Positions 165 to 29,327 of a stretch of 64,000 nucleotides of DNA are shown one piece after another; position 1 is the stretch's first letter, and each line of letters begins with the position of its first letter. The position numbers and the translations under genes were made by a program. The notes beneath the pieces are model-generated. The model had not been told where the DNA came from, ran no database searches, and worked only from the letters and a program-made list of their open reading frames with translations. Source of the stretch: a virus. Where the stretch lies: IMG/VR virus record IMGVR_UViG_3300028920_000002, positions 32,001-96,000 of that record; one strand, given 5' to 3'.

Positions 165-2357
165 ATGGAACTGTTCATCCAGCCCGAGACCTACTTGGAG
201 AAGACCGCCGGCGAAGTGGAGCTGCCGGAAGACCCCAACATGTGGCCCCAGGAGGTGCTGCAGGAGCTGTTCAAGCAGGTCCCGTACATCTCGGACTTCC
301 AGCCCCACGTCGTCATGGACAAGGTGGACGCCGAGCAGGGCTATGGTCTCGGGCACGTCGAGATTGCCAACCAGAGCGAGGCGCAGGTCACCGCTGAGCC
401 GGAGATGGCCGAGGCGGCGGGCATCCGCACGGTGCGCATCCCGGTGGTCATCCGAGAGGGCAAGCTCACACCTTTCGACCTGCTCATCAACGACAACGGC
501 AAGATTCTCCCGCTCACCGAATCCCGCATCCGGCAGGCCCTCTTCCGCCCGCAGGCATTCGACGTCACCAGCAAGACGCCGGGCGACCAGAGCATGATTG
601 GGCAGCTCTACCCTCCGTACCGTCAGAACTACGGTTTCGGGCGCACTGGTACTGGCGTAGTGACTGGAACCGGACTCGGGAAGATGGGGTCTGCGCTCGA
701 CGCGTACTTGACTGCGGAGCTCGAGAAGACTGCGCAGAGAGCCCAAGTACCTGAACGACCCAAGTCGGACTTTCAGTTTCATCGGTTGGAGAAGAAAGCT
801 TCCATCCTCGAGTCCATTCTCCCAACGCTCAACCGGACGGACTTCGACAGCTTCTGGGAGAAGGTCAGCAGTGACCACAGCCTTCAGGCGCAGTTCCGTC
901 ACAACGCTGACGCTACGCAGGGGGCGCTCTGTCTGCTGGCCAACCACGAGCCCATCACGCTGGAGAAGACGGCCAGCGCGTTGGCTGAGGTGGTCAAACC
1001 TACTGTCGCTCAGGTCACGAAGACGGTCGATGGCTATCTGGTGAAGACCGCCAGCCACCTCTACTGGAAGCCGCAGACCAGGCTCCTGAACCGCGGGGAG
1101 GTGATTCAGGAGTTCGGTGAGAAGGTGGCTCTGGCGGCGGATGAATCCGGCGGCGTCACGCTGGCCGAGGGTGCCGACGCCGAGGACGCCGAAGGAGCTC
1201 TGGACCAGGAGGAGCCCATCAGCGTTTCGGACTCTGGCCTCTACAAGGTCTACGACGATACCGGCAAGGAGCTGGTGGGCTTCGTCATCCCCAACCTGCT
1301 CGACACCGACGGCACCCCGCTGCCGCTGAGCCTGTTCACCAACGGTTCTCAGACGGCGGTGCAGGACGATATCCAGGGGGTGCCCGCCGGCGACGGCGTG
1401 AATCTGCCCACCGCCCAGCCCGGCGGACGGGGAGCCTTCTTCTCCGTCACCGACGAGGGCAGCGTTCAGGCCACTGTCCCCCTCGTTTTGGGTGGGTCCT
1501 ACGCCACGGGTGACGGTCAGACCGTCCTGAACGGACAGACCTTTGACGGGCGCCCGGTGGAGGTCAGCGTCCAGTCGAACATCCAGACCGTCATGGGCAC
1601 GCCCGAGGGGCGGATGCTGGTGCCGGAGAGCTGGCAGTGGACTCCGATGTCTGATGAGCAGGTCTCCTTGTACGGAGGCGACGTCGGGGAGCAGCCTGAC
1701 GAAGGCGACGACGAGCAGCTGCAGCAGGCTTTCGGCGCCGAGAACGAGGGTGAGGCAGCTCCCCAGCAGGAGGAGCAGGCTGAAGAGAAGCAGAGCTCGG
1801 CCTTCATCTGGGTCCGCTCCGGCGGCCCGGACACCTTCTCCGTCAGCGGTCCGGCGCTCGAGAAGCTGGCCTACAGCGAACGGGAGTCGTTGAGTCTGGA
1901 TGACGCCATGTTCCTCCTGGCGGGCCTTGGTGTGTCACAGGCGTATGGCGTCAAGAAACTGGCGCACGCCTGTTCAGGGGCCAACCCGGAACGCGTGCGG
2001 ATTGGGCGCATCATCAAGACCGCGGCCGAGGTGGATGCCTGGTCCAGGGAGCGCGCACAAGCTCTGCACTCGGTGGTCCCACGGCTCAAGCAGGACCTGG
2101 TGAAGGAGGCCGCGCTCATCCCCAATCCGTCGGCCGTTGACACCGTACTCAGCCTGGGCTTCATCAACCCAGAGAACATCATGACGTTCGTAGGCTACCT
2201 GCCGGACATCGACGGCGCGCAGGGCAAGCTCTGCGAGTTGCTGCTCGCTTCCCGCCTCGGCATGGACGACATCCCAGCTTCGGCACTAGAGCGGGCAGTC
2301 CGCTCCGTCGAAGAGACCATCGAAGGTCTGAAGGTCCTCGCGTTCCAAGGAGGCTGA
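165..2357 (+). CDS. Large head-associated virion protein, KxA-motif rich (730 aa)
   Basis: RBS GAGGAG, strong GC3 bias, about 11 K-x-A/S motifs by eye (EKTA x3, EKKA, VKTA, EKVA, EKQS, EKLA, KKLA, IKTA, VKEA), position in head module. Confidence 0.75.
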   Translation: MELFIQPETYLEKTAGEVELPEDPNMWPQEVLQELFKQVPYISDFQPHVVMDKVDAEQGYGLGHVEIANQSEAQVTAEPEMAEAAGIRTVRIPVVIREGKLTPFDLLINDNGKILPLTESRIRQALFRPQAFDVTSKTPGDQSMIGQLYPPYRQNYGFGRTGTGVVTGTGLGKMGSALDAYLTAELEKTAQRAQVPERPKSDFQFHRLEKKASILESILPTLNRTDFDSFWEKVSSDHSLQAQFRHNADATQGALCLLANHEPITLEKTASALAEVVKPTVAQVTKTVDGYLVKTASHLYWKPQTRLLNRGEVIQEFGEKVALAADESGGVTLAEGADAEDAEGALDQEEPISVSDSGLYKVYDDTGKELVGFVIPNLLDTDGTPLPLSLFTNGSQTAVQDDIQGVPAGDGVNLPTAQPGGRGAFFSVTDEGSVQATVPLVLGGSYATGDGQTVLNGQTFDGRPVEVSVQSNIQTVMGTPEGRMLVPESWQWTPMSDEQVSLYGGDVGEQPDEGDDEQLQQAFGAENEGEAAPQQEEQAEEKQSSAFIWVRSGGPDTFSVSGPALEKLAYSERESLSLDDAMFLLAGLGVSQAYGVKKLAHACSGANPERVRIGRIIKTAAEVDAWSRERAQALHSVVPRLKQDLVKEAALIPNPSAVDTVLSLGFINPENIMTFVGYLPDIDGAQGKLCELLLASRLGMDDIPASALERAVRSVEETIEGLKVLAFQGG

Positions 2358-2358
2358 G

Positions 2359-3870
2359 GTGGCCGAAGGTTTCGGCCGACTCATTGGGGGCGTGAAGGCC
2401 GAGCTTGGCTACGGCCCGGCACTGCCTAAGCCCACGGAGGAGGAGAAGCGTGAGGCTCTGCAGCGCGCGGAGGAAATCAGGCGCACTGTCGGCAAGCGGT
2501 ACAACGTCTCCCCCTATCTGGCTGGGTCGCTAGCCACCGGCTTGAACATTCCTGGGCAGCACGACTTCGACTACGGGGTACGCGTTACCTCCAAGCCGAA
2601 GTTCGACAAGCTGGTCAATCGTTTGCAGCGGGCCGAGGGAGTGAAGACCTCTCCATACAATCAGACTGGTACGGACTACCACGTCTTCACCACCAGTGTT
2701 GGGGGCGAGCCCGTGGACTTGGCTGTCATGTATGGGGACAAGGGCAAGCTGCAGCGGCAGGCGATTCAGCGGGCTCAGAACCTCAGTCAGGACGAGAAGG
2801 ACAAAATCATTGCTGAGAAAGCGCGGCTCTCCAACGTCCTGTTCTTTCAGAAGCAGCGCAAGAAGCGCTTCAAGCGACAGGTAGACGCGCAGCTCGGTCT
2901 ACCGCGCTTCGGTAAAGAGAAGGTGGGACGTGTTGTGACCGACCAAGAATGGAGGCGACTCGCTACTCGCCCTACTGTGTTCGGCCATCGCACGAACAAC
3001 ATCGAGCCCATCATGCAGTCTCAACGACTGTTGAGCGCCGCTGATGCGGCGAAGAGGGGAGCGCTGAAGAGCTACGAGACGGGGACGGGTCGTGGGAGCC
3101 GCGAGCGCTCTGATTTGAGTGAGCGTAGAGGCGAGCGCAAGATGCTCCGCTCAGAGGTCTTCATGAACAAGGGCGGATTGATGCCCCCCAGCGAAGCGTA
3201 TGGACAATACGGCGTGCTCTTCGAGAAGCAGAAGGCCGCGCCCTCGAAGTACCTCAACGCCGTACCTCGAGAGCACACGGCAGAAACGGTGAAGAGCAAG
3301 CTCACTTACGTTGTGCCTGACAAGGAATTCGCGAAGTGGAATCGTAAGTTCCCTGACCGGAAAATCATGCGCGAGTCACACGTGCCGGAGCATATGAGGC
3401 TGCCAGGCAAAGACCGCGGAGAGCTCATCCAGAGAATCCTGACCGGACCCAAGCTCTACGAGAAGAAGGAAGAGGTCAAGATTGGTGGAGCACTGGCCAA
3501 GAAGAAGGGGCTGCGCCGGGTGGGGCAGCTCCTCAGTGGTTCCCGAATGAAGGCGTTGGAGGAGCGGGCTGCTGGTCTGGAGTCCCCATTTCGACGGCGC
3601 GCCCAGCGTGCGCTGGAGCCTGTCCGAAGTAGCGGGATGAAGAAGCGCCGTATAGAGGAGAGCCTCGGGCGCGTGAAGTCCAGAGGTAGGGTTGAATCCG
3701 CGCTGAAGGCCGAGCAGGAAGCAGTACAAAAGGCGAGAAAGACCACCAAGACTGTTGGGGGTGTGGCTGCTGGACTTGGGGCCGCGGCGCTTGGTGCTGG
3801 GGCGTTCAGCAAAGCCATGAAAGAGCCGGACTACGCGGCGATTGCGGCCGAGCAGCGCGCAAAGGCTTGA
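2359..3870 (+). CDS. Cargo polyprotein: Pol-beta-type nucleotidyltransferase + ADP-ribosyltransferase-fold (AbiGi/DarT-like) domain + C-terminal Gly/Ala membrane helix
   Basis: GS-x11-DFD (aa 56-71) and third Asp in VDLAV (aa 120); then H-x-T...I..S..LLS, VF, YGQYGVLF, E305; C-terminal GGVAAGLGAAALGAGAF; GTG start. Confidence 0.65.
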   Translation: MAEGFGRLIGGVKAELGYGPALPKPTEEEKREALQRAEEIRRTVGKRYNVSPYLAGSLATGLNIPGQHDFDYGVRVTSKPKFDKLVNRLQRAEGVKTSPYNQTGTDYHVFTTSVGGEPVDLAVMYGDKGKLQRQAIQRAQNLSQDEKDKIIAEKARLSNVLFFQKQRKKRFKRQVDAQLGLPRFGKEKVGRVVTDQEWRRLATRPTVFGHRTNNIEPIMQSQRLLSAADAAKRGALKSYETGTGRGSRERSDLSERRGERKMLRSEVFMNKGGLMPPSEAYGQYGVLFEKQKAAPSKYLNAVPREHTAETVKSKLTYVVPDKEFAKWNRKFPDRKIMRESHVPEHMRLPGKDRGELIQRILTGPKLYEKKEEVKIGGALAKKKGLRRVGQLLSGSRMKALEERAAGLESPFRRRAQRALEPVRSSGMKKRRIEESLGRVKSRGRVESALKAEQEAVQKARKTTKTVGGVAAGLGAAALGAGAFSKAMKEPDYAAIAAEQRAKA

Positions 3871-3903
3871 CCCACAAGAAGAAGTCGGCCACTTTCAACG
3901 GGG

Positions 3904-4872
3904 ATGATTCGCCGCAGCCCCTGCGAGTGCTACATCAAGTACCTGCTCGTGCACCCCGATGGGTACGCTGATACTGCAGTCATTGACCTGCTCCGGCTAC
4001 AACAGCTCGATGTAGTGAGCGCGGCGTACATCGACCGCTTGAGGCGGAGCATGCGTCTGCCCAAGCCGTTCTACCCCAGCAATAGGCTGCATAGGCCGTC
4101 GAGCCGGTTTCTCCGAGCGCAGCATATCTACCTGCTGTTCCACCCCGACCAGTCCATGCGGGAGGCCCAGCAGATTTTGCGCCATGCCCGAGGCAAGGAG
4201 CTCATGGAGACATTGGTGCTCGCCGGTGAGCCTCCAGCCTTCATCGCTCACAGACTTTCCGGGGCCGGCTTCAAGTGCACGACTGAAACAGTTGAGCGCT
4301 ACTGCCACCACTTCTGGAATCTCCGCCTACTCGACTCTACTGAGACTCGTGCACTACTCCGCTTGCGGTGGGAGTACGTCTCTGACGTTGAGGAGCCGGA
4401 AGATGCGCGCACGCGCACCGCGTTGAAGAAGGCGTACCACAACGACCCGCGGCGCATCGTGGCCGAGAACCCGGTCAGCCCGCTCGCCGGGGTGATGGGC
4501 CAGATGCAGCTTGGCTACATGCCCGGTCAGGTTGAGCTGTCTCGTCTAGCCGACGCAACTCGCACGGCGGCGCAGCTGCAGATGATGGCCTCATCGGTTG
4601 TAGGAGGTCCTGGCCGCGCTGCTGAGGCGAGGGATTGGTCCATGGTCGTGTCGGCCATGACTCAGCTCATTGCAGATATAGGCAGTCCGGAGGCAGAGTT
4701 GCAGAAGGAGCTGCAGCAGCTGGGGCTCAAGACCGAAGAGGCTATGGTCCCGCACATCAAAGAGCTCAGCGATGGGTCGCACACGGTGGATTTGCAGCCG
4801 ATAGGAGACAGCGATGTCAGTGAGGAGCCAAGAGCAGGAGCGTCAGGTGGTACTGGGGGAAGTGCCGGATGA
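3904..4872 (+). CDS. Hypothetical protein upstream of terminase (possible DNA-binding or small-terminase-like)
   Basis: 322-aa ORF, helical, C-terminal coiled coil; function inferred from position only. Confidence 0.6.
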   Translation: MIRRSPCECYIKYLLVHPDGYADTAVIDLLRLQQLDVVSAAYIDRLRRSMRLPKPFYPSNRLHRPSSRFLRAQHIYLLFHPDQSMREAQQILRHARGKELMETLVLAGEPPAFIAHRLSGAGFKCTTETVERYCHHFWNLRLLDSTETRALLRLRWEYVSDVEEPEDARTRTALKKAYHNDPRRIVAENPVSPLAGVMGQMQLGYMPGQVELSRLADATRTAAQLQMMASSVVGGPGRAAEARDWSMVVSAMTQLIADIGSPEAELQKELQQLGLKTEEAMVPHIKELSDGSHTVDLQPIGDSDVSEEPRAGASGGTGGSAG

Positions 4873-5275
4873 GAAGGCACGCGAGTACATCAATCATGCG
4901 CAGGATGTGAGCATCGGCAAAGATGCCATCCCGCAGTTCATCAAGTACAAGTGCTACAGCTTTCGGGCTGAGTACACGTTCATCGATGAGGACCTCGTCA
5001 TCCATTTCTATCTGCCAGCTCACGCGAATCTGGAAACGCCGGAGGCGGAGCAACAGTGGATGCGATACTGGATTGGGCGCTTCGCCGAAGTGCTGGACCG
5101 GATAGCACGAGAACACTTCGAGGCGGAGCATCCGCGGCTGGTGGCGAAATACACTGAGGAAGTGGCCTCGTGGTGGTTCCGAGCGCAGGGTTTTGGGGGA
5201 GGTCTGTCTCCTGAGATGCTGGTCGTGCGCTTCTTCGAGAAGCTCGATGAAGCACTAAGGACTTCGAGCAACTGA
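4814..5275 (+). CDS. Hypothetical protein
   Basis: 153-aa ORF with protein-like composition; start uncertain because it overlaps the previous gene. Confidence 0.6.
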   Translation: MSVRSQEQERQVVLGEVPDEKAREYINHAQDVSIGKDAIPQFIKYKCYSFRAEYTFIDEDLVIHFYLPAHANLETPEAEQQWMRYWIGRFAEVLDRIAREHFEAEHPRLVAKYTEEVASWWFRAQGFGGGLSPEMLVVRFFEKLDEALRTSSN

Positions 5276-5528
5276 ACTCCACGCGCTGGTTGTAGAAGCG
5301 CACGTTGCCGAACGTCCATCCGCACGCCGCTCCATACTGACGTATGTACTCACGAAGGCTCTCCCTCGCTTTGGGCAGAACACCACTCAGCTGAAATGCC
5401 ACCCGGTAGCCATCATCCTCTTCCCACGCCTGGACCAACCCTGTCAGGTTACCAGCGGCCCGATTCAGAGATTCCCACAGACCGCGCACTGCCTGTTCGG
5501 GGTCGCTCGTAGACTCAGGGGGGAACAT
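4998..5528 (-). CDS. Possible antisense hypothetical protein filling the 5276-5526 gap
   Basis: First ~90 aa look protein-like and occupy an otherwise empty gap; the tail runs antisense to 4814-5275; no clear RBS. Confidence 0.3.
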   Translation of the reverse strand: MFPPESTSDPEQAVRGLWESLNRAAGNLTGLVQAWEEDDGYRVAFQLSGVLPKARESLREYIRQYGAACGWTFGNVRFYNQRVEFSCSKSLVLHRASRRSARPASQETDLPQNPALGTTTRPLPQCISPPAADAPPRSVLVLSGPALRRSAQSSIASTVAPPPAFPDSRELADRNG

Positions 5529-7323
5529 GGCGGCTGAACAAGTCTACGTCGAACCAGAGGATGAGTGGGACGATAGTTGGTTCGACGACCGCATATGGAC
5601 ACCAGAGCCCGAGATTGTAGAGCAGCCGCTCGTCATACGTCAGAAGCGGAAGAAGCTGCCGAGAATACCGGAGGTTAGACCTTCGGACTTCACCGCCTTC
5701 GCCTTCCGCATGCCGAGGGAGGACGAAGAAGGGCGCATCGTCATCGACAACTTCTCGTTCGAGGGTCGCCGTCATCTGCGCCGTATATACGACACTCCCG
5801 CTAAGAAGCTGCTGCTCATCTGTGGTCGACAGGTCGAGAAGTCCACACTGCTGGGGAACATCGCTCTCTGCTACATGAGTCTAGTGCAGGGCTACCGCGT
5901 CTTGTACGTCAGCCCTTCTGCAACGCAGACGAAGACGTTCAGCAACGACCGAGTCAAGGAGCCGATTGAGACCAGTCCGATTCTCAAGAAGTTCACGACT
6001 CACATGCTGTCGCAGAACATCTTCGAGAAACAGTTCATCAACCGCAGCAAGATTACGATGCGGTACGCATTCCTCAATGCGGACCGAGCTCGAGGTATCC
6101 CCTCGTACATGCTGGACGTCGATGAGTTGCAAGACATCCTCGGAGACAACCTGCCGGTTCTCGAAGAGTGCCTCAGCCACGCTCCCGACCGTTGGAAGAG
6201 ACAGGTCTACTCAGGAACGCCCAAGAGTCTCGATAACACCATCGAGCAGTACCGCGTAAAGCGCTCAACGCAGAGTGAGTGGGTGGTGCCACACAACTGT
6301 AGAGGAGGAGAGGGAGGTCGCTTCTGGAACATCCTTGGTGAGAAGAACATCGGGCTGAAAGGTCTCATCTGTGAGAACTGCGGCACTCTCATCGACCCCA
6401 TGTGTGACGACGCGCAGTGGGCCTGCATGGTCTACCCCAGCGACAAGGTGGACTTCGAGAGCTACCGAATCTCTCAATTGATGGTGCCTTGGGTACCCTG
6501 GATTGACGTCCTCACGAAGTATCGGAACTACGGGCGCGACCGGTTCTACAACGAGGTGTTGGGGCTGAGCTATGACTCGGGGCTACGCCCGCTCACCATG
6601 CAGCAGGTGAAGGACCGATGCATGGACCACATCACCATGTCTGCAGTGGAGGCGTATCGGTCCAGAGCCTACACCACTCCGGTCTTCGCCGGCATCGACT
6701 GGGGTACTGGAGAGCACAGCTACACCGTCGTCTTCTTGGGCACCTACGTCGACATGCAGTTCCGCGTCTTCTTCGCTCACCGATTCACTGGTGAGGAGAC
6801 TGAACCCGAGCTGCAAATCAAGCGCATCATCGAACTCCTGCGGTACTTCAACGTCCGGCTCATCGGCTGCGACTATGGTGGCGGGTTCGCCATGAACCAC
6901 CGGCTCATTCGAGAGTTCGGAGCCGACAAGGTTCATCAGTTTCAGTATCTGGCACGAACCACCGGTAAGAAGGTGCAGTGGGACCCCAAGATGGGCCGCT
7001 GGAAGATTGCACGCACCGAAGTGATGAGCGACATCTTCAACGCCATCAAGCGCAACAAGTGCGAATTTCCTCGGTGGGAGGAGTTCGAGGAGCCTCACGG
7101 CAGTGACATGCTGAACATCTACTCGGAGTACAACGAGAAGCTCCGCATGATTCAGTACGACCACTCCCCCGACAACCCAGACGATTCCTTCCACGCGTTC
7201 TTGTACTGCTGGTTGGTGAGCATGCTCATCATCCCACGTCCTGACATCGTCGCGCCGACGAAGGAGGACCCACGTACTGGAATGCCCATGCAGAACTTCG
7301 CAGGTCCGGTAGACCAGAGCTAG
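5527..7323 (+). CDS. Terminase large subunit (lambda GpA-like ATPase + RNase H nuclease)
   Basis: Walker A-like GRQVEKST, PSATQTKTFSNDR, Walker B LDVDELQD, SGTPK coupling motif, CxxC insert, nuclease AGIDWG and DDSFHA. Confidence 0.92.
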   Translation: MAAEQVYVEPEDEWDDSWFDDRIWTPEPEIVEQPLVIRQKRKKLPRIPEVRPSDFTAFAFRMPREDEEGRIVIDNFSFEGRRHLRRIYDTPAKKLLLICGRQVEKSTLLGNIALCYMSLVQGYRVLYVSPSATQTKTFSNDRVKEPIETSPILKKFTTHMLSQNIFEKQFINRSKITMRYAFLNADRARGIPSYMLDVDELQDILGDNLPVLEECLSHAPDRWKRQVYSGTPKSLDNTIEQYRVKRSTQSEWVVPHNCRGGEGGRFWNILGEKNIGLKGLICENCGTLIDPMCDDAQWACMVYPSDKVDFESYRISQLMVPWVPWIDVLTKYRNYGRDRFYNEVLGLSYDSGLRPLTMQQVKDRCMDHITMSAVEAYRSRAYTTPVFAGIDWGTGEHSYTVVFLGTYVDMQFRVFFAHRFTGEETEPELQIKRIIELLRYFNVRLIGCDYGGGFAMNHRLIREFGADKVHQFQYLARTTGKKVQWDPKMGRWKIARTEVMSDIFNAIKRNKCEFPRWEEFEEPHGSDMLNIYSEYNEKLRMIQYDHSPDNPDDSFHAFLYCWLVSMLIIPRPDIVAPTKEDPRTGMPMQNFAGPVDQS

Positions 7324-8045
7324 TCGTCGAAGTCGATGTGGCTCAGGATGCGGTCATGGATGTCGCATCCAGTTTCCGGGAAGCGTTTGGTGGCCTCCGG
7401 TAATCCGTGCTTGGTACGGATGTAGAAGTAGGCAGCGTGGCGTAGACTACGTCTTCCCGCATCTAACCACCCATAGGCGATGCGCGTCATAGGCTCAGCA
7501 TCGAGTAGTTCGATGGGGCAGTTGACCGTGAGCTTATTTGCTAGCTCCAAGAAAGGCTCCCACGGTTCATCCTTGCCCAGAACCTTCTCGATGAGCGCGA
7601 AGTACTCTTCGCCGATGGCCATGAACACCTTGGCCCAATTCAGAATCTCGTCGGCATCAGTGATACGTCGGTCTTTGTACTCGTGGACCTTGAGCCACAT
7701 CGAGACGACCGAATCCTCGTCGAGCTGAAGCGGAGGTACACCGGCTCCACACATCTGCTCTAGGATGTCCACGCGCCGTTCGAGTGCGCGGGCGGTGGCG
7801 AACGCCTGAGCGGCGGTGACTGACACTTCAGGTAGGGTCACTCCTCGCCGGCGCGCCTCGGCCAGGGCGGACACTTCCTCCGACCAATACATCCTGGGCG
7901 CATTCAGCCTCTGTCCTGTAGGATAGTGGGGTCGGAGCATTCCTTGGCGCGCGAGTTGCATCACCTGGTGGACACTGACCCCGAGGACCTCTGCGGCCTC
8001 CTCGGGAGGAATCAGGCGGTTGCTTCCCATGACCTTGACCGACAT
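7320..8045 (-). CDS. Excisionase/MerR-like winged-HTH DNA-binding protein
   Basis: N-terminal LIPPEEAAEVLGVSVHQVMQLARQGML fits the HTH_17 pattern; ATG at 8045; stop shares CTAG with the terminase stop. Confidence 0.75.
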   Translation of the reverse strand: MSVKVMGSNRLIPPEEAAEVLGVSVHQVMQLARQGMLRPHYPTGQRLNAPRMYWSEEVSALAEARRRGVTLPEVSVTAAQAFATARALERRVDILEQMCGAGVPPLQLDEDSVVSMWLKVHEYKDRRITDADEILNWAKVFMAIGEEYFALIEKVLGKDEPWEPFLELANKLTVNCPIELLDAEPMTRIAYGWLDAGRRSLRHAAYFYIRTKHGLPEATKRFPETGCDIHDRILSHIDFDD

Positions 8046-8080
8046 GGTACTTCTTTTGTGCACGGCTGAAAGAGGTTCTG

Positions 8081-9736
8081 ATGCACGACCTTCCATCCAT
8101 CACCCTTCTGCAGCAGGCTCACGCAGTCCCCAAGACCGGAGAAGAACTCGAAGTTCTCGGGAAGACCGCGGCTTGTAGGTATGAATCGGGTGAGTGCTCC
8201 AGTCTCAGCGATGCTGTGGTGGAGACCGTCAAACACGCCGGCCTCTCCCCGGAGCAGGTGAAACGGGTCACCGAGTTCACCAACCAGGCGGCGTACCTCA
8301 ACGAGTTCCGCAAGCTGGGGAGCAACCACAAGTACATCGAGTTCGACGGCGGCCCGGCCGACCCCGGCGCTGTGTTGAAGGACCTCAACGATGGGAGTGG
8401 CGGCACCGTCTTCGACCGTGGCGTCCTCGACTACGCCTCCCAGCCGTCGACTCCTGTGAAGACCGCATCCGTGAAGCGCAACATGGCTCGGCTGGAGAAG
8501 GTGGCTCAGCGCTTCATGAGCGATGCGGACTTGGCACAGTTCGCTGGCATGCAGCCGATGGGCATGGAGAATTGGCGGGACAACCCCATGTATCAGAACC
8601 AGCGGAAGCTGCAGCAGGTGGCGATGCTCAGTGCCATGACCGGCCGGCAGCCCATCAAGGTCGCTGCTGCTGAAGAGAAGCCGTTGCCCGGTAACGGGCT
8701 CGGTGAGCGAGGGAGGGGCGCTCCAGGACCGGGTTCTGGGTGTGACCAGCCGGGACGTCGGCTTGGGCAGAGGGGCGAGGTCCCCCGTAAGTTTAGGCAC
8801 CGCGCTGCGGATTTGTCGGCGGTGCAGCTCGCTGGTGAGCGGAAGCAGTCGTCGGCCGAGCTCGACTTCAACCCGGCCGAAGCCGCCTTCGAGGACATGT
8901 TCCGAGCCGACGGGCCGGAGACTGAGCCGTACCACGAGCCCATGCAGGACACGCTCGACATGAGGGAGAAGCTCGCCGGCGCGCGGGACCACCTGACGGG
9001 TGAGCTCGGAGGGCTCGAGCTCGCCTTCGGCGAGGTCCTCGAGGACATGTACCAGCAGGTCAAGCAGGCGGCGCTGCAGGGCGCGACGCTCGGCCAGGTA
9101 ATTCGTGCCTGGAACGACGTGGTCCCCGGGCCGGAGTACGTGAAGACCGCCTTCGCCCACATCGGCCCGCGCCTGCATGAGGAGGGAGTCTTCCCCTCCC
9201 TCGACTCCATCGGCGAGTCGCTCACCAAGACTGCGGCCACTGGGCTGGTAAACCACAGTCACCCTTTGGTCCAGTCCATGGCCGCGTATATCACCGTGCT
9301 CGATAAGCTGGCTCATGTGCGCGCAGCACGGGATGAGCTGGCTCAGGAGTTCGAGCGCATCGATTGGTTCGCCAAGCGTGCAGCTCCGACCGCTCAAGGG
9401 CTCAACATCATGAAGCGGATGGCCCAGAGTGGAGGGCTCATCCCAAAAGTGACGGGCGCTGCCAGGCGAGCGGGTGAAGCTGTAGCTCCTCGGGTGCAGC
9501 AGGTGGGGGAGGCCCTCCTAGGCGCCGGCTCTCCAGCCGCTGCGCAGATGGGGCAACTCGCTGGCGGCGCCGTCAAGTACACCCCGCATGCCGTTGCCGG
9601 ATTGGCCGGCCTCGAGGCGTACCAGCGCGCCAAGTACAACCCGGCCTTCCAGACGGCGAAGAACGCCCTGCTCGGCCGCATTCCCTACACCCACCCCTGG
9701 CAAGTTCGGCAGTACCAGCTGCAGATGGGAGCATGA
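8081..9736 (+). CDS. Internal head protein, KxA-motif rich (551 aa)
   Basis: KTA x4, KVA x2, KQS, KLA x2, KRA motifs; C-terminal Gly/Ala-rich amphipathic segment; RBS AGAGG. Confidence 0.7.
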   Translation: MHDLPSITLLQQAHAVPKTGEELEVLGKTAACRYESGECSSLSDAVVETVKHAGLSPEQVKRVTEFTNQAAYLNEFRKLGSNHKYIEFDGGPADPGAVLKDLNDGSGGTVFDRGVLDYASQPSTPVKTASVKRNMARLEKVAQRFMSDADLAQFAGMQPMGMENWRDNPMYQNQRKLQQVAMLSAMTGRQPIKVAAAEEKPLPGNGLGERGRGAPGPGSGCDQPGRRLGQRGEVPRKFRHRAADLSAVQLAGERKQSSAELDFNPAEAAFEDMFRADGPETEPYHEPMQDTLDMREKLAGARDHLTGELGGLELAFGEVLEDMYQQVKQAALQGATLGQVIRAWNDVVPGPEYVKTAFAHIGPRLHEEGVFPSLDSIGESLTKTAATGLVNHSHPLVQSMAAYITVLDKLAHVRAARDELAQEFERIDWFAKRAAPTAQGLNIMKRMAQSGGLIPKVTGAARRAGEAVAPRVQQVGEALLGAGSPAAAQMGQLAGGAVKYTPHAVAGLAGLEAYQRAKYNPAFQTAKNALLGRIPYTHPWQVRQYQLQMGA

Positions 9737-9737
9737 G

Positions 9738-10259
9738 ATGAGCCCGCTCGACGAGTACATGGAGCTACGCAAGGAGGCGGCCACCCAGATGCTTCTACCG
9801 GGCTTCAGGCGTGGGGCCGGTACGCTGATGAGGGAGTTCGGCCACTCTGCCGTCAGCCCCCAGGCTGTCGGTGAAATGGGCAGGGCCTTCGGCATCGGTG
9901 CGGTGGGTGCCGCCGGCGCGGCGATGTTCGGCGGAGCTGTGTCTGGTGTGCGCAAGCTCATGGGTGCAGCGAGCGCCAAGCGCGACTTCCGGGACATGAT
10001 GGACACCCACCCCGACCTGCACGACGTCCAGCAGGAGAACCCGCGCTTCTTCAACCAGGCGTACAAGTCGCTCAGGCGAATGAACCCGACCTACGCCAAG
10101 GACCCGATGATTGCCGGCAGCTACATGAAGAAGATGATGGCCTCCCCGGACACCGCGGGTTTGACGCTGGCACAGAGCTTCCGGCAGCCACAAGAGCACG
10201 GACAGCAGCCGCTCGGACTGCGCGTGGGCAAGGATTCGCCCGTCACCTTCAACGTCTGA
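9738..10259 (+). CDS. Small head-associated membrane-helix protein
   Basis: Start reassigned to ATG 9738, 1 nt after the previous stop; leader ends in RKEA; glycine zipper GIGAVGAAGAAMFGGAVSG. Confidence 0.75.
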   Translation: MSPLDEYMELRKEAATQMLLPGFRRGAGTLMREFGHSAVSPQAVGEMGRAFGIGAVGAAGAAMFGGAVSGVRKLMGAASAKRDFRDMMDTHPDLHDVQQENPRFFNQAYKSLRRMNPTYAKDPMIAGSYMKKMMASPDTAGLTLAQSFRQPQEHGQQPLGLRVGKDSPVTFNV

Positions 10260-10260
10260 G

Positions 10261-11961
10261 ATGCTCAAGGTCAGCACCTTCTTCGCCGAGAGTGACCACG
10301 GCCTCGCCGCGGTACCGCTCTTCGGCAAGGCTGACGCAGCCTTTGAGAAGACGGCAGCGGCGGGATTGCTGCCGGAGGTGATGGCCTACATCGAAGGACT
10401 GAGGCCCCGGCCAGGAGCTCAGTACGTTCTCGTCAACGCTATGGGCGCCGGCGAGTACTACGGCTCAAACATCAACGGCGACTACTTCGAGGAGAGCGGC
10501 CTCATCCACAAGCCCGATGGCTGGAGCGGCAACCCGCTGACCGACAAGCTGTTGGCGAAGAACTGGCACTACGGATTCCCCACCTTCTACAACGCTCATC
10601 CGTACGCCCATCACCGCAACAAGGACCCCAGCCGGGCCTACGGTGAGGTCGAACTCGCAGTGTGGAACGACCACATGAAGCGGGTTGAACTCGTAGTCCG
10701 TGTGGACCTGGACAAGTGCAACAAGTTCGGAGGGGTCAGCGTCTGGGACCGGCTCAAAGAAGGTCAGTTCCCTGACGTCAGCATGGGCTCTCGTGTGCCG
10801 TTCGACCTGAGCTCCGTCAATACAGACTGGGAGTTGTACCGTAAGGCACTGGCGGGCTTCCGCCCAGGTAAACATAAGCATCCTGGCTTGGCGGTGGTGG
10901 AATTCCACAAGAAGCTCAAGGCCGAAAACGGTGTGGGCATCAAGGGTGTCTCCATCACCCGCAATGACTACGACGAGTGGACGAAGAATCACATGAACCG
11001 CATCCTGCCCGATGGCAGGAAGGTCTTCGTCTACAACCCGTTCCCCCGCTTCTTCGACATCAGCTTCGTCTTCATCGGCGCGGACAAGACCGCCAAGGTG
11101 ATGGTGTTCATCATCCGCTGTGGAGGCCCGAAGTACGTCTCCTCTGCCGATGCTGCAGAGAAGCTTGGGTACGATGAAGTAGCTACAGAGCGGCTCGAGC
11201 GCGCTGCTTCGGAAGGCGTGAAGACCGCCAGCATTGCTGATGAACTTTTGAAGAGTGCGTTCCTCGGCAAGAAGAGTGAGATTGAGAAGGAGGTCGTGCC
11301 ATCGCAGTTCGCGAGCAAGGCCATTCCGGTCCTGACCAAGTGCGAGAAGGACCTACCGGAGGAGGCGGTCAAGGCGCTGGCCTCCGTGCCCGAGAAGAAT
11401 GCGCTCTCTACCCTCAGCGGAATGGGGATTGTGCTCCGGCCTCGGGAGTTTCAGCGCATCACCCTCATTCGTGAGGGCAAGGGACCGTTGGCGGACCAGC
11501 TCAGTGAGGCGGACCAGCTCTTTCCAAAGAGCAAGGACAGCTTGCCGATGGCCCTTTCTGCAGGCGATTTCATGCCTGCTCTGGCCCGGCTGCTGATGCC
11601 CTTGATGATGGAGCGTTCAGCGCTGGGCCCGTACGTCGAGAAGCGTGTTGTAGTCGTTGATTCTGACAAGAAACCCACCAAAGAAACGGCCACTTCCCAT
11701 CCAGACGAAAGTCTCCGTAAGATGAGTGCTGCGTACAACGGGTACCGGCAGAGTTTGATGGATACAGTGGCGCACACCCAAGAGCTCATCGAGTCAGCAG
11801 CGCTGCCTGAAGACGTCGAGTTGCGAAAGCTCGCTGCCGCACCCGCTGAAGAAGTCTTCACCCAGTTGGCGGTCAACTACTTGGAAGACGCTTTCATGGA
11901 TGAAGCACCGTTTGCCGTTACGGAAAACACGGTGGTACAACCCAAGGACCTCAGGCGATAG
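10261..11961 (+). CDS. Prohead (capsid maturation) serine protease, HK97/assemblin fold
   Basis: Candidate His in AHHRNKD, YGEV...VELVV, candidate Ser nucleophile in VSMG, FFDISFVFIGAD; lies between terminase and capsid genes. Confidence 0.82.
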   Translation: MLKVSTFFAESDHGLAAVPLFGKADAAFEKTAAAGLLPEVMAYIEGLRPRPGAQYVLVNAMGAGEYYGSNINGDYFEESGLIHKPDGWSGNPLTDKLLAKNWHYGFPTFYNAHPYAHHRNKDPSRAYGEVELAVWNDHMKRVELVVRVDLDKCNKFGGVSVWDRLKEGQFPDVSMGSRVPFDLSSVNTDWELYRKALAGFRPGKHKHPGLAVVEFHKKLKAENGVGIKGVSITRNDYDEWTKNHMNRILPDGRKVFVYNPFPRFFDISFVFIGADKTAKVMVFIIRCGGPKYVSSADAAEKLGYDEVATERLERAASEGVKTASIADELLKSAFLGKKSEIEKEVVPSQFASKAIPVLTKCEKDLPEEAVKALASVPEKNALSTLSGMGIVLRPREFQRITLIREGKGPLADQLSEADQLFPKSKDSLPMALSAGDFMPALARLLMPLMMERSALGPYVEKRVVVVDSDKKPTKETATSHPDESLRKMSAAYNGYRQSLMDTVAHTQELIESAALPEDVELRKLAAAPAEEVFTQLAVNYLEDAFMDEAPFAVTENTVVQPKDLRR

Positions 11962-15576: not shown

Positions 15577-16704
15577 ATGAGCAGCGTCGTTTCACCGCGA
15601 ATGCTGAACGACCTCTTCGCGCAGAAGCTGAACACGCAGGAGGGCAAGGAAAAGATTGCCCAGTACGGCGGCAGCTACATCCGCGACCGGCTACGCGAGG
15701 TCAGCTTCGCACGCAAGATTCTTCCGCCGGAGCAGGTCACGCGCAACGACTGCCAGCGGTCCACGAACCACGACACCCTCGTGAAAATCGTGGACATCGA
15801 GCCGCAGTCCCGCGCGATGGCCATCACGTTCCGGGGGCAGCCCTCCGCCCGCTTCATCCGCGCGCCCCGCGCGGAGTGCGCGTTCTTCACCATCAGCTCG
15901 GAAATCTTCCAGAAGACCGAGCAGGAACTGCTGGCCTACGAGATGCCCATCACCAAGGTCATCGAGGAGAACAGCGTGAAGGACATCCAGGAAATCGAGG
16001 ACCGCGAGTTCCTGCTGCACATCGAAGCGGCCGTGCAAGCCCTGCAGACCGAGGCCAATGGCGGGACGCCGACGGCGCTCAACAACACGGCCATCGGCAC
16101 GACGGTCGAGTTCAGCGTCCGCAAGGGCGAGCTGGCTCGGGCGTCCGGCGTGGGCGACGACGCCGTGGTGCGGCCCATCCAGCGGGTGGACATCGTCAAC
16201 CTGTTCAAGATGCTGGACGGGAATCGGCTGCGCGCCGAGCGCATGCTGATGACCGAGGTCGACTACGACGACATCCTTCAGTGGACCGTCGAGGACCAGG
16301 GCGACCGCATCCAGTCGGAGACCACGGTCGACGGCTACAAGTACAACACGCTGCTCGGGCGTGCGTACATCCGCACCATCAAGACGGACCTGCTTCGACC
16401 GGGCAACGTCTACATCTTCACCGCTCCGCAGTTCTTCGGCCGGTTCTTCATCCTGAACCAGACCAAGTTCTACATCGACAAGGTCGCCAACCTCATCTCC
16501 TGGCAAGCCTGGGAGGACATCGGCATGCTGGTGGCCAACATCGCGTCGGTGCGGAAGATGGAGCTGTACTCGGCGGACGCCAACCCGTCCACCGACGCCG
16601 ACAGCCTCCTCGCCAACTTCATTCCGAAGGAGGAGGAAGAACTGGGAGCGGTCAACAACCGCGTCGACTCGGGACTCAAGTTCCCGCAGGTCGTCCAGTT
16701 CTAG
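15577..16704 (+). CDS. Major capsid protein (HK97 fold)
   Basis: RBS AAGGAG, extreme codon bias, 375 aa, IRDRLREVSFARKILPP N-arm pattern, followed by a terminator. Confidence 0.85.
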   Translation: MSSVVSPRMLNDLFAQKLNTQEGKEKIAQYGGSYIRDRLREVSFARKILPPEQVTRNDCQRSTNHDTLVKIVDIEPQSRAMAITFRGQPSARFIRAPRAECAFFTISSEIFQKTEQELLAYEMPITKVIEENSVKDIQEIEDREFLLHIEAAVQALQTEANGGTPTALNNTAIGTTVEFSVRKGELARASGVGDDAVVRPIQRVDIVNLFKMLDGNRLRAERMLMTEVDYDDILQWTVEDQGDRIQSETTVDGYKYNTLLGRAYIRTIKTDLLRPGNVYIFTAPQFFGRFFILNQTKFYIDKVANLISWQAWEDIGMLVANIASVRKMELYSADANPSTDADSLLANFIPKEEEELGAVNNRVDSGLKFPQVVQF

Positions 16705-18302: not shown

Positions 18303-20236
18303 TGTCACGCATCGAAGACGCATTGAGACGGGACATCCCTCTGCATGTGGCGGCAGAGTACTTCTCCATGGTGAAGCAGGCTCGTGAGCTCACGATGAAG
18401 GGACGCGAGCAAATCAAGGAGAAGAACTTCGCCATTCCGAAGGGTGATGGGCCAGGAGATACTGGCAAGTACCCCATCCACGATGAGCGCCATGCGAAGA
18501 CCGCGCTCACCTATGTGGAGCAGCACGGCACGCCGGCGGAGAAGGCCAAGGTCTACTCGGCAGTGGCGAAGAAGTACCCAGGTCTCAGCCGCGAATCGAG
18601 CGTTCCTGCACTGCGAGAGAAGGCTCAGGAGAAGAAGGCCGCGGAGGAGAAGAAGGCGCCTATCAAGACGATGCACCCCGGAATCTCGGCGGCCATCGGC
18701 GCGGGTGGTGGTCAGGGAGTTCCTGACCTTGCGGCTGCTGCCTATCAGAAGATGAAGGGCAAGTCGGTTCGTGGAGCCGGCGTCAAGTCCCGCCTCGTAG
18801 GTGGCGCCATCGGTGCAGCTACGTTGGGAGCTGCCGGGTTGGCTGCACGTCGGCAGGAGAAGAAGCATCAGAAGCAGGAGAAGACGGCGGCCGATGAGTC
18901 CGACTCCGAACTGCGAGAGAAGGGACGACAGCGCGCTGTCTCCAGCATGGCCGCCGAGTTCGAGCGGGAGAAGTCCCGTCGGGCAGAGCGCGCCGGCGGC
19001 GCCCTGGGCGCCCTGGGTGGAGCTGCAGCAGGGGCGTTGGCTGGTAAGAAGCTCGTGGGTGGCAAGCTCGGGACGCTTGGTGGGGCGGCTCTCGGTTTGA
19101 CCACCGGGCGGCAGGCCGGCAAGGAGGTCGGCACCGAGGTCGACATCAAGCGGCACGAGAAGACCGCGGCGCTCAGATTCGATGAGGCGGCAGAGGCGCA
19201 GCTGCGCCCCATCGAGGCCGACACGCGTAAGGGTATGGGCAAGCTCTTCCGAGATGCTGGCATCGTGCGTGGGGCCGTACCCTCCGCTCTGGTCAGCGGG
19301 CTGGGAAGCGCTGCCCTCACCGCCGGAATGGGTGGTGGACTACGCGGGGCAGGCCGCGCCGCCGGCGCTGGCGCCCTCGGCGGGCTCGTCTTGGGCGGTC
19401 TCGGCGGTGCTCTGGCCGGGCAGGCCAAGGGGCAGGAGGCAGCCGAGCGCCTCAACGAGATGCGCCGCAACGCCGTCCTGGGGCGGGCCATCCAACAGCA
19501 GGCAGCTGCGCCTCCGCCGGAGGCAGTTCAGGAGCCGGTGAAGGCCGCTGCTGCCCGCATGAAGTTCAAGCTGGCCGCCACCAAGCTGGCCGACGACGGT
19601 GCCATGGGCCAGGAGGCCCCCATGACCTCCCCGACCGCGCCTGAGCTGCAGCCCCAGAACTATCTGGCGGCCGAGCAGATTGGCCAGCAGGCCCAGGACG
19701 CGACCGAGATGGCCTACTACAAGGAGCAGGCCCGTCAGGCTCAGCAGCAGGCGGCCATGGCCTCTCAGCAGGCCGAGGCGACGGCCGCTGCCTCCGCCGA
19801 GGGCCAGGCGCAGGCCCAGCAGCTCCAGCAGCAGGCGATGATGGCTCAGGATGAGGCCACCAAGCAGACCCAGGTGGCCGCCCAGCTACGCATCGCCCTG
19901 CAGGCCCAGCGGGCCAAGCTCATGGACGTGGTGAGCCAAGACCCGACTGAGGCCCTGGCCGCCGAGATTGGGCAGGGGCCGGCGCCGGCGGTGCCGCCGG
20001 GGGCCGAGGAGGCGGGGGCCGCCGCGGGCGCTCCACCGCCGCCCGAGGCCGGTATGCCCCAGCCTCCGCCTTCGGCCGCCGCCGCCAAGGAGATGGAGGA
20101 GGCCGCCCGCGCCCAGAACGACGCCGCCGAGCAGACCGCTCAGGCCGAGGGAGCCGCCCAGGGTGGCCCCGCTGCCGCCCCACCGCCCGGAGGCCCCGCC
20201 GGGCCGCCCGGCGCCGCCCCACCTGCAGGACCGTAG
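18302..20236 (+). CDS. Modular internal head polyprotein (KYPI-type small domain, three glycine zippers, Gln/Ala coiled coil, Pro-rich tail)
   Basis: Modules separated by KQA, EKKA x2, EKTA x2, KAA, KLA x2; GKYPIHDERHAKTALTY...KKYP resembles DUF6582. Confidence 0.72.
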   Translation: MSRIEDALRRDIPLHVAAEYFSMVKQARELTMKGREQIKEKNFAIPKGDGPGDTGKYPIHDERHAKTALTYVEQHGTPAEKAKVYSAVAKKYPGLSRESSVPALREKAQEKKAAEEKKAPIKTMHPGISAAIGAGGGQGVPDLAAAAYQKMKGKSVRGAGVKSRLVGGAIGAATLGAAGLAARRQEKKHQKQEKTAADESDSELREKGRQRAVSSMAAEFEREKSRRAERAGGALGALGGAAAGALAGKKLVGGKLGTLGGAALGLTTGRQAGKEVGTEVDIKRHEKTAALRFDEAAEAQLRPIEADTRKGMGKLFRDAGIVRGAVPSALVSGLGSAALTAGMGGGLRGAGRAAGAGALGGLVLGGLGGALAGQAKGQEAAERLNEMRRNAVLGRAIQQQAAAPPPEAVQEPVKAAAARMKFKLAATKLADDGAMGQEAPMTSPTAPELQPQNYLAAEQIGQQAQDATEMAYYKEQARQAQQQAAMASQQAEATAAASAEGQAQAQQLQQQAMMAQDEATKQTQVAAQLRIALQAQRAKLMDVVSQDPTEALAAEIGQGPAPAVPPGAEEAGAAAGAPPPPEAGMPQPPPSAAAAKEMEEAARAQNDAAEQTAQAEGAAQGGPAAAPPPGGPAGPPGAAPPAGP

Positions 20237-20249
20237 CTAGGAGCCAGTC

Positions 20250-21956
20250 ATGTTGGACCAATTCCTCGAGGTCGCCTACGAGGCACAGCAGAAGAAGGAA
20301 GCTCAGGCCGAGATGGTCGAGGGCTTCAAGAACCTCCCCGAGCGGGAGCTGTTCAAGCTGGCCACCGGTCAGACCAAGCTCGCCATGTACGACGGGGACG
20401 ACTGGCTCGAGAAGTACAAGGACACGGAGCTCTACCCCGAGGCCCTACAGCTCGAGCAGCAGTGCCTGCAGGCCAAGATTCAGCAGGAGCAGAAGCGCTT
20501 GGCCGAGCAGGAGGAGCGGGACTCCAAGCGCGAGGAGCAAGATGAGGAGTGGCGCGCGATGGACGCCATCCGCCTGAAGAAGCGCATCCTCGACCTCAAG
20601 CTCAATCAGGCAGAGCTCGCAGCTCTCGGCTCAGAAGGCGGAGAGGCCGGCGAGGAAGAGGAGTCTGAGGAGGAAGAGGCCGAAGAGGAGGCCGAGGAGC
20701 CTGAGGCTGAAGAGGGCGAGGAAGAAGCCGAGGCCGACAACGCCGCAGTGGCAGCTGATGAGAAGGCTGCTTCAGACATGAAGACTGCAGTGTCTATTGA
20801 TTGGGTGCGTCGCGGCGCTAGGAGTGGTGCCAAGCAAAGGACTCTGAAGGGGGAGGGTGAGAAGCTAGTTCAGTCCATCCGCAAAGCTCGAGCGCCGTCG
20901 CCCAAGAGGCAGGCGGCTAGCAAGGGTCTAGCTGAAGGCATGGTAGAGGCTGCCCGAACCAAGAAGGCGTCAGCGGCTCTCACGAAGGTCGCTCAGCCTC
21001 CGGCGGCGCAATCCATGAACCCCATCAAGGCTCGGCGGGTTGTCCAGCCTCAGCTGGAGGACGTGGCTCTCGACATGGACCTGCCCGAAACCTACACGCC
21101 ACAGGACGTAGAGGCCGGCGGTGCGCTGCTCGGTGAGAACATCGCAGCTCAGCGGGGAAAGCTCCAAGAGCAGGCTCAGTACGCCCAAGAGCATCCGGTG
21201 ATGAACAAGCTGAAGGGCGCGGTGCCCGGCGCTGTGATTGGCGGGGTGGGCGGTGGCCTAATCGGTGCAAGTACGGGAGGTACGGGCAAGCAGATGTTGG
21301 CTCGGGGAGCCATCGGTGCTGGCCTCGGCGCGCTCGGCATGGGAGGAATCACCGCTGCCGCCACTCCCGGCGCCGCGAAGCGTCAGGAGACGGCGGGTGA
21401 GTACGAGGCTGCTGAGCAGGCGCTCACGCCAGAGCTGCGGCAGGCCCTGGTAGAGCGTGAGCTCAAGGATTGGGGAGCTGAGCAGGCGCACAACCGGGCT
21501 CTTGCTTTGGCAGAGGCTCGAGCACCTCGTACGAACATCTCGCAGACGACGCGCAACGTCATGCGTCCGCCGTACGCTGCGGAGGATGAGGACGAAGGGG
21601 ACTACCGGTATGCGTCCGCTCAGCTCAAGCTCGCGGCGGCGAAGATTCGCATGCGCCAAGAGATGGAGAAGGAGGCGTGGGGCCCGGTGCTGGCGGCGAT
21701 GGGCAAGGGCCTGCAGGGCATGGGGCAGTTCGCTGCCAAATCCGGCCGTCAACTCGGTGGTGCCATCAGCCGTGGCGCCAAGGCAGGTACGGTAGCGCCG
21801 GTAGGCCGCACCCTGGGTAGGCAGGCGCAGGCTGGAATGATGCGCGCAGGCCAGTGGGCGGCGAAGAATCCCAAGGCTGCCCTAGGTATTGCTGGCGCCG
21901 GCGCGCTGGGCGTTGGTGGTCTGGGGTACATGGCAGGCCGCGGCTCCAACCAGTAG
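20250..21956 (+). CDS. Modular internal head polyprotein (coiled coil, acidic tract, glycine zippers)
   Basis: RBS AGGAG; KLA x3, KTA, KKA, KVA, KEA motifs; two Gly-zipper segments. Confidence 0.72.
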   Translation: MLDQFLEVAYEAQQKKEAQAEMVEGFKNLPERELFKLATGQTKLAMYDGDDWLEKYKDTELYPEALQLEQQCLQAKIQQEQKRLAEQEERDSKREEQDEEWRAMDAIRLKKRILDLKLNQAELAALGSEGGEAGEEEESEEEEAEEEAEEPEAEEGEEEAEADNAAVAADEKAASDMKTAVSIDWVRRGARSGAKQRTLKGEGEKLVQSIRKARAPSPKRQAASKGLAEGMVEAARTKKASAALTKVAQPPAAQSMNPIKARRVVQPQLEDVALDMDLPETYTPQDVEAGGALLGENIAAQRGKLQEQAQYAQEHPVMNKLKGAVPGAVIGGVGGGLIGASTGGTGKQMLARGAIGAGLGALGMGGITAAATPGAAKRQETAGEYEAAEQALTPELRQALVERELKDWGAEQAHNRALALAEARAPRTNISQTTRNVMRPPYAAEDEDEGDYRYASAQLKLAAAKIRMRQEMEKEAWGPVLAAMGKGLQGMGQFAAKSGRQLGGAISRGAKAGTVAPVGRTLGRQAQAGMMRAGQWAAKNPKAALGIAGAGALGVGGLGYMAGRGSNQ

Positions 21957-21969
21957 GAGATGCATTTGA

Positions 21970-24141: not shown

Positions 24142-24156
24142 AGAAAGGAGCCCGCA

Positions 24157-27330: not shown

Positions 27331-27339
27331 GGCCCCCCG

Positions 27340-27726: not shown

Positions 27727-27749
27727 AATACTCGTAGAAGGAGAAGGAC

Positions 27750-28511: not shown

Positions 28512-28523
28512 TAGGAGGTCCTC

Positions 28524-28931: not shown

Positions 28932-28942
28932 CCGGAGGCTAC

Positions 28943-29317: not shown

Positions 29318-29327
29318 GGGGGTTCTC

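Follow-up and report, generated by a model that had tools for sequence, protein, structure and literature searches.

The virus record IMGVR_UViG_3300028920_000002 (IMG/VR) contains a gene for a protein in which a nucleotidyltransferase (NTase) domain and an ADP-ribosyltransferase (ART) domain are joined on one chain and followed by a basic tail. The window analysed here is a stretch of 64,000 nucleotides corresponding to bases 32001–96000 of this 186,723-bp record, which has direct terminal repeats and is rated complete. With a confidence that we would put at about even, we interpret the protein as a small phage effector of the polyvalent type, consisting of a GrpB-like NTase (domain 1, D1), a DarT-like ART (domain 2, D2), and the tail, that would be loaded into the phage head, possibly cut, and delivered. 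The folds of the two domains, the conservation of their catalytic residues, the recurrent co-occurrence of D1 and D2, a K-x-[A/G] motif at the joints, and the position of the gene in an operon are direct results of the analysis. Two alignments are referred to below, A1 (close homologues) and A2 (broader, divergent relatives). The gene and the parts of its product are located in the window as follows.

2359–3870, + strand: NTase–ART gene, a single open reading frame (ORF) of 503 codons encoding 503 amino acids (aa).
2349..2361, + strand: translation start, with a strong GGAGG Shine-Dalgarno sequence at 2349–2353, 5 nt before the GTG at 2359.
2359..2436, + strand: N-terminal leader (aa 1–26), delimited from alignment A1.
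2437..2913, + strand: D1 (aa ~27–185), a predicted GrpB-like Pol-beta NTase, from motifs, Pfam matches in relatives, and fold matches.
2914..2934, + strand: inter-domain linker (aa 186–192) holding K188-V-G, the lowest-confidence internal stretch of the model (predicted local distance difference test [pLDDT], 76).
2935..3486, + strand: D2 (aa ~193–376), a DarT-like ART fold ending in E371-V-K374-I-G376, from the model and conservation.
3487..3750, + strand: first part of the tail (aa 377–464), strongly basic; its first 88 aa have an isoelectric point (pI) of 11.7 and include 26 K/R.
3751..3870, + strand: second part of the tail (aa 465–503), with the Gly/Ala-rich hydrophobic stretch GGVAAGLGAAALGAGAF and the C-terminus ...EQRAKA, from the sequence.

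The ORF is a real gene, and its motifs are not there by chance. Its GTG start lies 1 nt past the stop of an upstream ORF of 730 aa, to which the gene is predicted to be translationally coupled within an operon, and no promoter- or terminator-like site was found in the + strand gaps between the NTase–ART gene and its neighbours. Every one of the sequence motifs that a first-pass annotation had named in the protein is present, and the catalytic ones are conserved.

The region (as nucleotides) and the protein were compared with 50,697 phage records, and no similar DNA or protein came to light. With the window protein as query, Pfam, PHROGs, and NCBIfam gave just a weak match to NTP_transf_2 (E, 0.041) and a weak match to an archaeal CCA-adding enzyme model (TIGR03671), PADLOC gave a weak generic NTase similarity and no defence model beyond that, and a fold search of BFVD returned uncharacterised phage proteins only (E, 4e-3 or worse). 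Sequence and profile searches of PDB with the whole family, D2 alone, and the D2 alignment gave no match, and the ESM Atlas's own model of the protein was poor (predicted template modelling score [pTM], 0.34) and uninformative. Pattern scans for close relatives found one fragmentary relative in IMG/VR and none in GTDB genomes. A word-indexed search identified ten relatives (43–51% identity, 348–393 aa), and an exhaustive HMMER search identified 106 cluster representatives at E ≤0.001; the HMMER representatives and the close homologues make up the 114 relatives that were screened locally. The leader of most of the 10 close homologues in A1 contains a short E-L-x-K-[LI]-[AGS] peptide.

D1 is a Pol-beta NTase of the GrpB-like type whose catalytic residues are predicted to be intact. 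It satisfies the Pol-beta signature (hG[GS], [DE]x[DE], and a third carboxylate), and G56-S57, D69-x-D71, and D120 are invariant in the 11 close homologues of A1, and in the 34 divergent relatives of A2 G56-S57, D69, D71, D120, K154, and K172 are conserved to at least 90%. Among 39 family members, NTP_transf_2 of Pfam is matched by 19 (best E, 6.7e-8; above the cut-off in relatives P0017 and P0016), DUF4269 by 8 (weakly), and Polbeta by 6; the GrpB family (PF04229) was not among the Pfam families reported in any scan. Using the AlphaFold model of D1+D2 (pLDDT, 92.6; pTM, 0.71), Foldseek matched D1 to poly(A) polymerase, TUT7, Trf4, a CCA-adding enzyme, and CD-NTases (E, ~3e-4). In the exhaustive VIA search, in which every representative chain is aligned, matches of D1 to Pol-beta NTases span Z scores of 7–11. 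The best structural neighbour is GrpB (2nrk; Z, 10.9; root-mean-square deviation [rmsd], 3.4; 145/165 residues), followed by the GrpB domain of mycobacterial CoaE (6n39; Z, 10.2), and further neighbours at Z 8–10 include TUT4, CdnE, and an archaeal CCA-adding enzyme (class I CCA; Z, 8.4). All of D1 aligns with GrpB, for which we know of no established function. The GrpB-like Pol-beta NTase proposed in the first-pass annotation is thus borne out, but the domain begins near aa 27 with an N-terminal helix and not at aa 45–50, the annotated span having been aa 50–185.

Searches of Pfam, PHROGs, NCBIfam, PADLOC, and PDB sequences with D2, alone or as a profile, gave no match. Its AlphaFold model (pLDDT, 91.6; pTM, 0.86) was matched by Foldseek, in the top rows, to Tpt1, DarT, SpvB, AvrPphF, OspC3, heat-labile toxin, and Arr, all of which are ART folds. 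In the VIA search, Escherichia coli DarT1 (8baq) came first (Z, 6.9; rmsd, 3.6; 131 residues), followed by DarTG (7omu; Z, 6.4), yeast Tpt1 (7yw4; Z, 5.8), and the DarTs 7omv (Z, 5.7) and 7yk3 (Z, 5.6). Although any single row with a Z below 8 in such a search can be due to chance, nearly all of the top 50 rows are ARTs (Z, 3.0–6.9), the remainder of the list being made up almost entirely of Rhs ART toxins, pertussis- and cholera-type toxins, PARPs, and diphtheria-type toxins, and it is this uniformity of the hit list, rather than any single score, that identifies D2 as an ART fold. Fold searches, as had been proposed with the first-pass annotation, gave NTase folds for D1 and ART folds for D2.

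In ARTs, the three catalytic residues (H-Y-E or R-S-E) are known to lie on strands 1, 2/3, and 5. Residues H210, T212, E240, F268, Y281-G282, N300, E305, and P320 of D2 are kept in most or all of 34–39 divergent members, and H210-R-T212, LLSA, F268, Y281-G-Q-Y-G-V-L-F, and E305 are conserved among D2 relatives. In the model, H210-R-T212 ends the first strand (207–212), F268 and, 13 residues on, Y281 are placed around the strands that follow, and E305 opens the strand 305–308. Judging from conservation and these modelled strand positions, the triad H210/Y281/E305 is of the H-Y-E type and intact; DarT2 is among the ARTs described in this class (PMC11543638). D2 thus appears to be a new ART family that is absent from Pfam and nearest in structure to the DNA- and RNA-directed enzymes DarT and Tpt1. 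The DarT-like part of the earlier call, which read AbiGi/DarT-like, is upheld by the match to 8baq and the conserved H-Y-E residues, whereas for the AbiGi part no profile match was obtained. The start of DarT, which we take to read H-x-T-h-x-x-N-L-x-x-I-l-x-x-G, resembles HRTNNIEPIMQSQRLL of D2, and we regard this as a lead only. Other assignments of D2 were rejected: a 2H phosphoesterase, as the second H-x-T (E-H306-T) is not conserved; a HEPN partner of a minimal NTase, as the model is alpha/beta rather than helical; and membership of AbiGi, DarT, or Tpt1, as there were no profile matches.

D1 and D2 are found together in 73 of the 114 relatives, in the order D1–D2 in 46 and D2–D1 in 27, whereas 30 relatives contain D1 only and 11 contain D2 only. 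Since the two domains travel together in both orders, it is doubtful that they are independent effectors, and the proposal of two nucleotide-modifying effectors is retained here for the domain calls but not for their independence. In the longer relatives, D1–D2 is fused to an SNF2 helicase, InPase (PF18823), a 2H-SAK phosphoesterase, Peptidase_C39, KTSC, and glycine zippers. The gene neighbourhoods of two solo forms were inspected, and both are ordinary cellular ones. The solo D2 proteins P0049 and P0063 have signal-peptide-like N-termini, and the neighbours of P0063 on its contig (JGI 3300050046) are ordinary cellular genes for an aldose epimerase and a PLD-type enzyme; the new ART family seems to exist also as putatively secreted bacterial proteins. 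P0035 (419 aa) contains two tandem copies of D1 (aa 19–174 and 212–372) and no detectable D2. On another phage contig, an RNA polymerase (RNAP) piece bearing Rpb1_5, an SNF2 helicase, a D2–D1 gene, and a 2H/LigT/Acb1-like phosphoesterase are encoded within 9 kb (1599–10462), the D2–D1 gene sitting between the helicase gene and the 2H/Acb1-like gene, and these separately encoded parts are the parts that are fused in other phages.

The joints of the window protein carry EKVG (aa 187–190) and VKIG (aa 373–376), which had been taken as domain separators in the first-pass annotation; both are present and both are instances of a family-wide K-x-[A/G] motif. Of 37 D1-to-D2 linkers, otherwise variable in both sequence and length, 32 contain this motif, against 6.8 +/- 2.3 for random windows of the same proteins and 9.7 +/- 2.6 for shuffled linkers, and just past D2 it is present in 13 of the 19 proteins that continue, against 3.0 +/- 1.6 for random windows, all of these counts coming from related sequences that are not independent of one another. 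In most of the proteins without the motif just past D2, it lies a few residues upstream instead. In multi-domain relatives, K-T-A or K-x-A is found at Pfam domain borders, i.e. before Peptidase_C39, before InPase, and at the helicase/D1 joint, whereas the solo cellular D1 or D2 proteins have no K-x-[A/G] motif. In one divergent subfamily, the motif extends into a conserved D2 segment, K-x-A-x-[VI]-L-[DN]-L.

In the phage genome itself, [LIVMF]-x-K-x-[AG] occurs 70 times in the + strand ORFs of the head arm, against 38 expected from composition (1.84x), and 87 times elsewhere, against 85 expected (1.03x). The 730-aa protein encoded immediately upstream (window 165–2357, + strand) alone contains 10 copies, against 1.4 expected, including LEKTA three times, LEKKA, LEKLA, and LVKTA, and it looks like a heavily punctuated candidate polyprotein. 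This protein matched nothing in Pfam, PHROGs, or NCBIfam, and neither it nor the 322-aa neighbour matched any PDB sequence. A protease site is the simplest reading of K-x-[A/G], with a structural role at the edges of D2 as the alternative.

The last 127 residues of the window protein represent an added module, since the ten close homologues stop within a few residues of the position equivalent to aa 375 of the window protein. The whole tail (aa 377–503) has a pI of 11.3, with 30 Lys/Arg in 127 residues. The glycine-zipper end proposed earlier corresponds to the Gly/Ala-rich stretch at ~aa 465–483, which is present and is followed by 20 further residues to the C-terminus, but the tail gave no Pfam glycine-zipper match, although relatives have such matches. 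The tail has no paralogue in the phage genome and is shared only with relative P0111 (33% identity over 90 residues), in which the module is bordered by KVA/KEA before and KKA/KTA after.

The NTase–ART gene is embedded in a series of genes that run in one direction, i.e. a fused beta-beta' RNAP (2151 aa), ORFs of 411, 215, and 730 aa, the NTase–ART gene, ORFs of 322 and 153 aa, TerL, and the head module, in which an HK97-fold capsid protein is encoded at window 15577–16704. The order RNAP, three genes, NTase–ART gene, two genes, and TerL is kept in three other phage contigs (43–50% identity), and the gene is predicted from this arrangement to be part of a conserved late operon with head genes. 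As the operon headed by the fused RNAP runs into the head genes, this enzyme may be a virion RNA polymerase.

Genome 23816–30271, 1.7–8.2 kb upstream of the window start, + strand: fused RNAP beta-beta', 2151 aa (Rpb2_6, E 2.7e-63; Rpb1_2, E 4e-27; Rpb1_5, E 4e-19).

The nearest catalogued relatives of this RNAP (31–32% identity) are those of Vibrio phages D181, D148, and D69 (~187 kb) and Salmonella phage Arash, and no NTase–ART gene is present in these phages.

Polyvalent proteins are held to be processed and injected (Iyer et al. 2017; PMC5512222), and ARTs encoded beside terminase and portal genes have been treated as head-packaged (PMC9503650). Like polyvalent proteins, the window protein has several unrelated enzyme modules on one chain and is encoded among late virion genes, and its relatives share the repertoire of SNF2, InPase, 2H phosphoesterase, papain-like peptidase, KTSC, ART, and Pol-beta NTase modules listed in PMC5512222. 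Judged by domain content, the window protein and its relatives thus display the shuffled multi-domain repertoire by which polyvalent proteins are recognised. They differ in that the window protein has just three modules in 503 aa and no MuF or zincin peptidase module, and in that the D2 family matches no Pfam model, including any built from Iyer et al. 2017. Polyvalent domains include ARTs and Pol-beta NTases, the NTases being reported only in proteins of conjugative elements (PMC5512222). No description of the D1–D2 pair was found in the available portion of that paper or in a survey of viral NAD+ systems (PMC9503650), nor one of the K-x-[A/G] joint motif in the former.

Among phage ARTs, Alt of T4 is likewise encoded with head genes. 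T4 has a capsid-targeting sequence and gp21 processing (see also PMC5512222), which the short leader of the close homologues and the border motif recall. Alt, however, is of the R-S-E (Alt/VIP2) class and modifies proteins, and T4 cleavage sites are of the form [LI]-x-E, whereas D2 is predicted to be of the H-Y-E type and nearest to nucleic-acid ARTs, and the joint motif is K-x-[A/G]. Packaging has been shown for Alt, whereas for the window protein it is predicted. DarT (PF14487) is the best structural match of D2 and shares with it, in DarT2, the H-Y-E-type triad (PMC11543638), but PF14487 matched nothing in the phage genome at E ≤10 and none of 39 relatives at E ≤1, and D2 is fused to an NTase, is phage-encoded, and does not lie in a host defence locus. 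No DarG macrodomain or NADAR was found, and the neighbouring genes that were scanned gave no Pfam match. Unlike Tpt1, of which only the NAD+ lobe (7yw4, residues 110–230) aligns with D2, the window protein has an NTase upstream of this lobe and not an N-terminal RNA lobe, and no Pfam match to the Tpt1/KptA profile was found in 39 members. The parallel drawn in the first-pass annotation with the AbiG system, which is also a two-part system and in which AbiGi has been listed as an ART-like family (PMC12522546), could not be sustained: the AbiGi (PF10899) and AbiGii models matched none of 39 members at E ≤1, PADLOC gave no match, and according to a 2026 review neither AbiGi nor AbiGii has a structural match (PMC13064643).

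The polyvalent-type relatives, the conserved position between RNAP and terminase, and the published views on ARTs encoded with head genes (PMC9503650 and PMC5512222) fit the idea of a capsid cargo. The protein would be made together with the head proteins and loaded into the capsid, its basic tail lying on the DNA, possibly cut by a head protease at the K-x-[A/G] joints, and delivered into the cell along with the phage DNA. There, the ART would use NAD+ to ADP-ribosylate a target, which is more likely to be nucleic acid than protein, given that the nearest structural neighbours are of the DarT/Tpt1 type, and the NTase, acting in the same pathway, would attach a nucleotide; host takeover or counter-defence would be the purpose.

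Packaging, cleavage, and injection of the window protein are steps that we infer, and they are plausible because the gene sits in the conserved late operon between the fused RNAP and the terminase. Several observations weigh against this interpretation. Searches of the head-module ORFs against Pfam, PHROGs, NCBIfam, and PDB sequences turned up no recognisable prohead protease; the leader peptide is degenerate in the window protein (GGVKAELG); and its own joint sites, KEKVG and EVKIG, fit the L-E-K-x-A consensus poorly, as both lack the hydrophobic residue at −2. The structural matches of D2 to ARTs are modest (Z ≤6.9), and the corresponding Foldseek E-values are insignificant (0.6 or worse). 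K-x-[AG] is not enriched upstream of D1 (10/33, against 8.8 expected), and because it is enriched on both flanks of D2, it could be a structural feature of the end strands of that domain. The protein would then be a single, uncleaved bifunctional enzyme, packaged or not, in which the motif belongs to the edge strands of the ART. This explanation, which we consider rather unlikely, agrees with the presence of the motif on both D2 flanks and its lack of enrichment before D1, with its extension into the conserved segment leading into D2 in the divergent subfamily, with the beta-bridge near aa 192 and the last strand at aa 370–374 in the model, with the fact that no protease was recognised, and with the way D1 and D2 are strictly paired whichever comes first, which suggests joint action. 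It does not readily account for the variable distance of the motif past D2 (0–6 residues after the last strand), for its occurrence at the joints of unrelated Pfam domains (Peptidase_C39, InPase, and helicase/D1) and on the flanks of the tail module in P0111, for its enrichment in other head-arm proteins of the phage genome that have no D2, or for the solo cellular D1 and D2 proteins without it.

The structural neighbours of the two domains also bring to mind a cytoplasmic, non-packaged nucleic-acid repair pair acting against host tRNA/RNA nucleases, in which a Tpt1/KptA-like ART would use NAD+ to take off or cap the phosphates at the ends, and the ends would be rebuilt by a CCA-like terminal NTase. 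Tpt1 ranks with the best ART structures (7yw4, Z 5.8) and fills the top Foldseek row, D1 matches the class I CCA-adding enzyme (Z, 8.4), weakly TIGR03671, and terminal uridylyl and poly(A) polymerases, and 2H phosphoesterases, with which KptA is partnered in RNA repair (PMC9503650), are fused to relatives or encoded next to them. DarT nevertheless outscores Tpt1, of which only the NAD+ lobe aligns and which has no Pfam match in the 39 members, GrpB covers D1 better than do the CCA enzymes, whose body and tail domains are lacking in D1 (~160 aa), and the position in a late head-gene operon is unusual for repair enzymes; such a repair function is quite improbable. Still lower, as very improbable, we rate a self-regulating toxin pair, in which the NTase would nucleotidylate and restrain the DarT-like ART, as MntA does HepT, for the exclusion of rival phages or timed host killing. 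DarT is indeed a potent toxin that a partner restrains, toxins with NTase partners have been described (PMC5512222), and D1 and D2 co-occur in both orders, but no PADLOC defence model was found beyond the weak generic NTase similarity, the gene is located in a structural operon rather than a defence island, the 187-kb phage looks lytic, and each domain also occurs alone in cellular genomes, in some cases with a signal peptide.

T4 Alt is a known head-carried ART, and such ARTs have been predicted among polyvalent proteins; the general idea of a head-loaded effector is therefore not new. What appears to be new is an ART family without a Pfam, PADLOC, or PDB sequence match; its lasting association, in both orders, with a GrpB-like NTase, which hints at a coupled two-enzyme chemistry and could offer the first functional handle on GrpB-like NTases; and the K-x-[A/G] motif at module joints across many divergent phage polyproteins and head-arm proteins. 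If this motif is a protease site, cargo proteins and their mature ends would be predictable from sequence across an uncultured phage lineage. A more far-reaching version, which we regard as unlikely, is that a large uncultured phage lineage uses K-x-[A/G] as a punctuation code at which a putative head protease releases shuffled modules, and that the DarT-like ART and the GrpB-like NTase form an obligate pair acting on nucleic acid in a two-step NAD+/NTP modification at entry.

Three further features were noted around the head genes.

Genome 19396–22031, − strand: DUF2201 putative metallopeptidase with a VWA-like domain (E, 3e-20 and 1e-13).
Window 7320–8096, − strand: 258-aa ORF between TerL and the putative portal gene, with a weak excisionase-type helix-turn-helix match (E, 0.002).
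Window 8081–9736, + strand: putative portal-position protein, 551 aa, ~100 aa longer than its relatives (419–450 aa).

The DUF2201 protein, encoded next to a MoxR-type AAA+ ATPase and just ahead of the RNAP operon, on the strand opposite to it, is the only recognisable peptidase near the head arm. Counterparts of the 258-aa minus-strand ORF (236–246 aa) are found in the same position in relatives. The portal-position protein contains 7 copies of [LIVMF]-x-K-x-[AG], against 1.4 expected, four of which lie in the first 140 residues.

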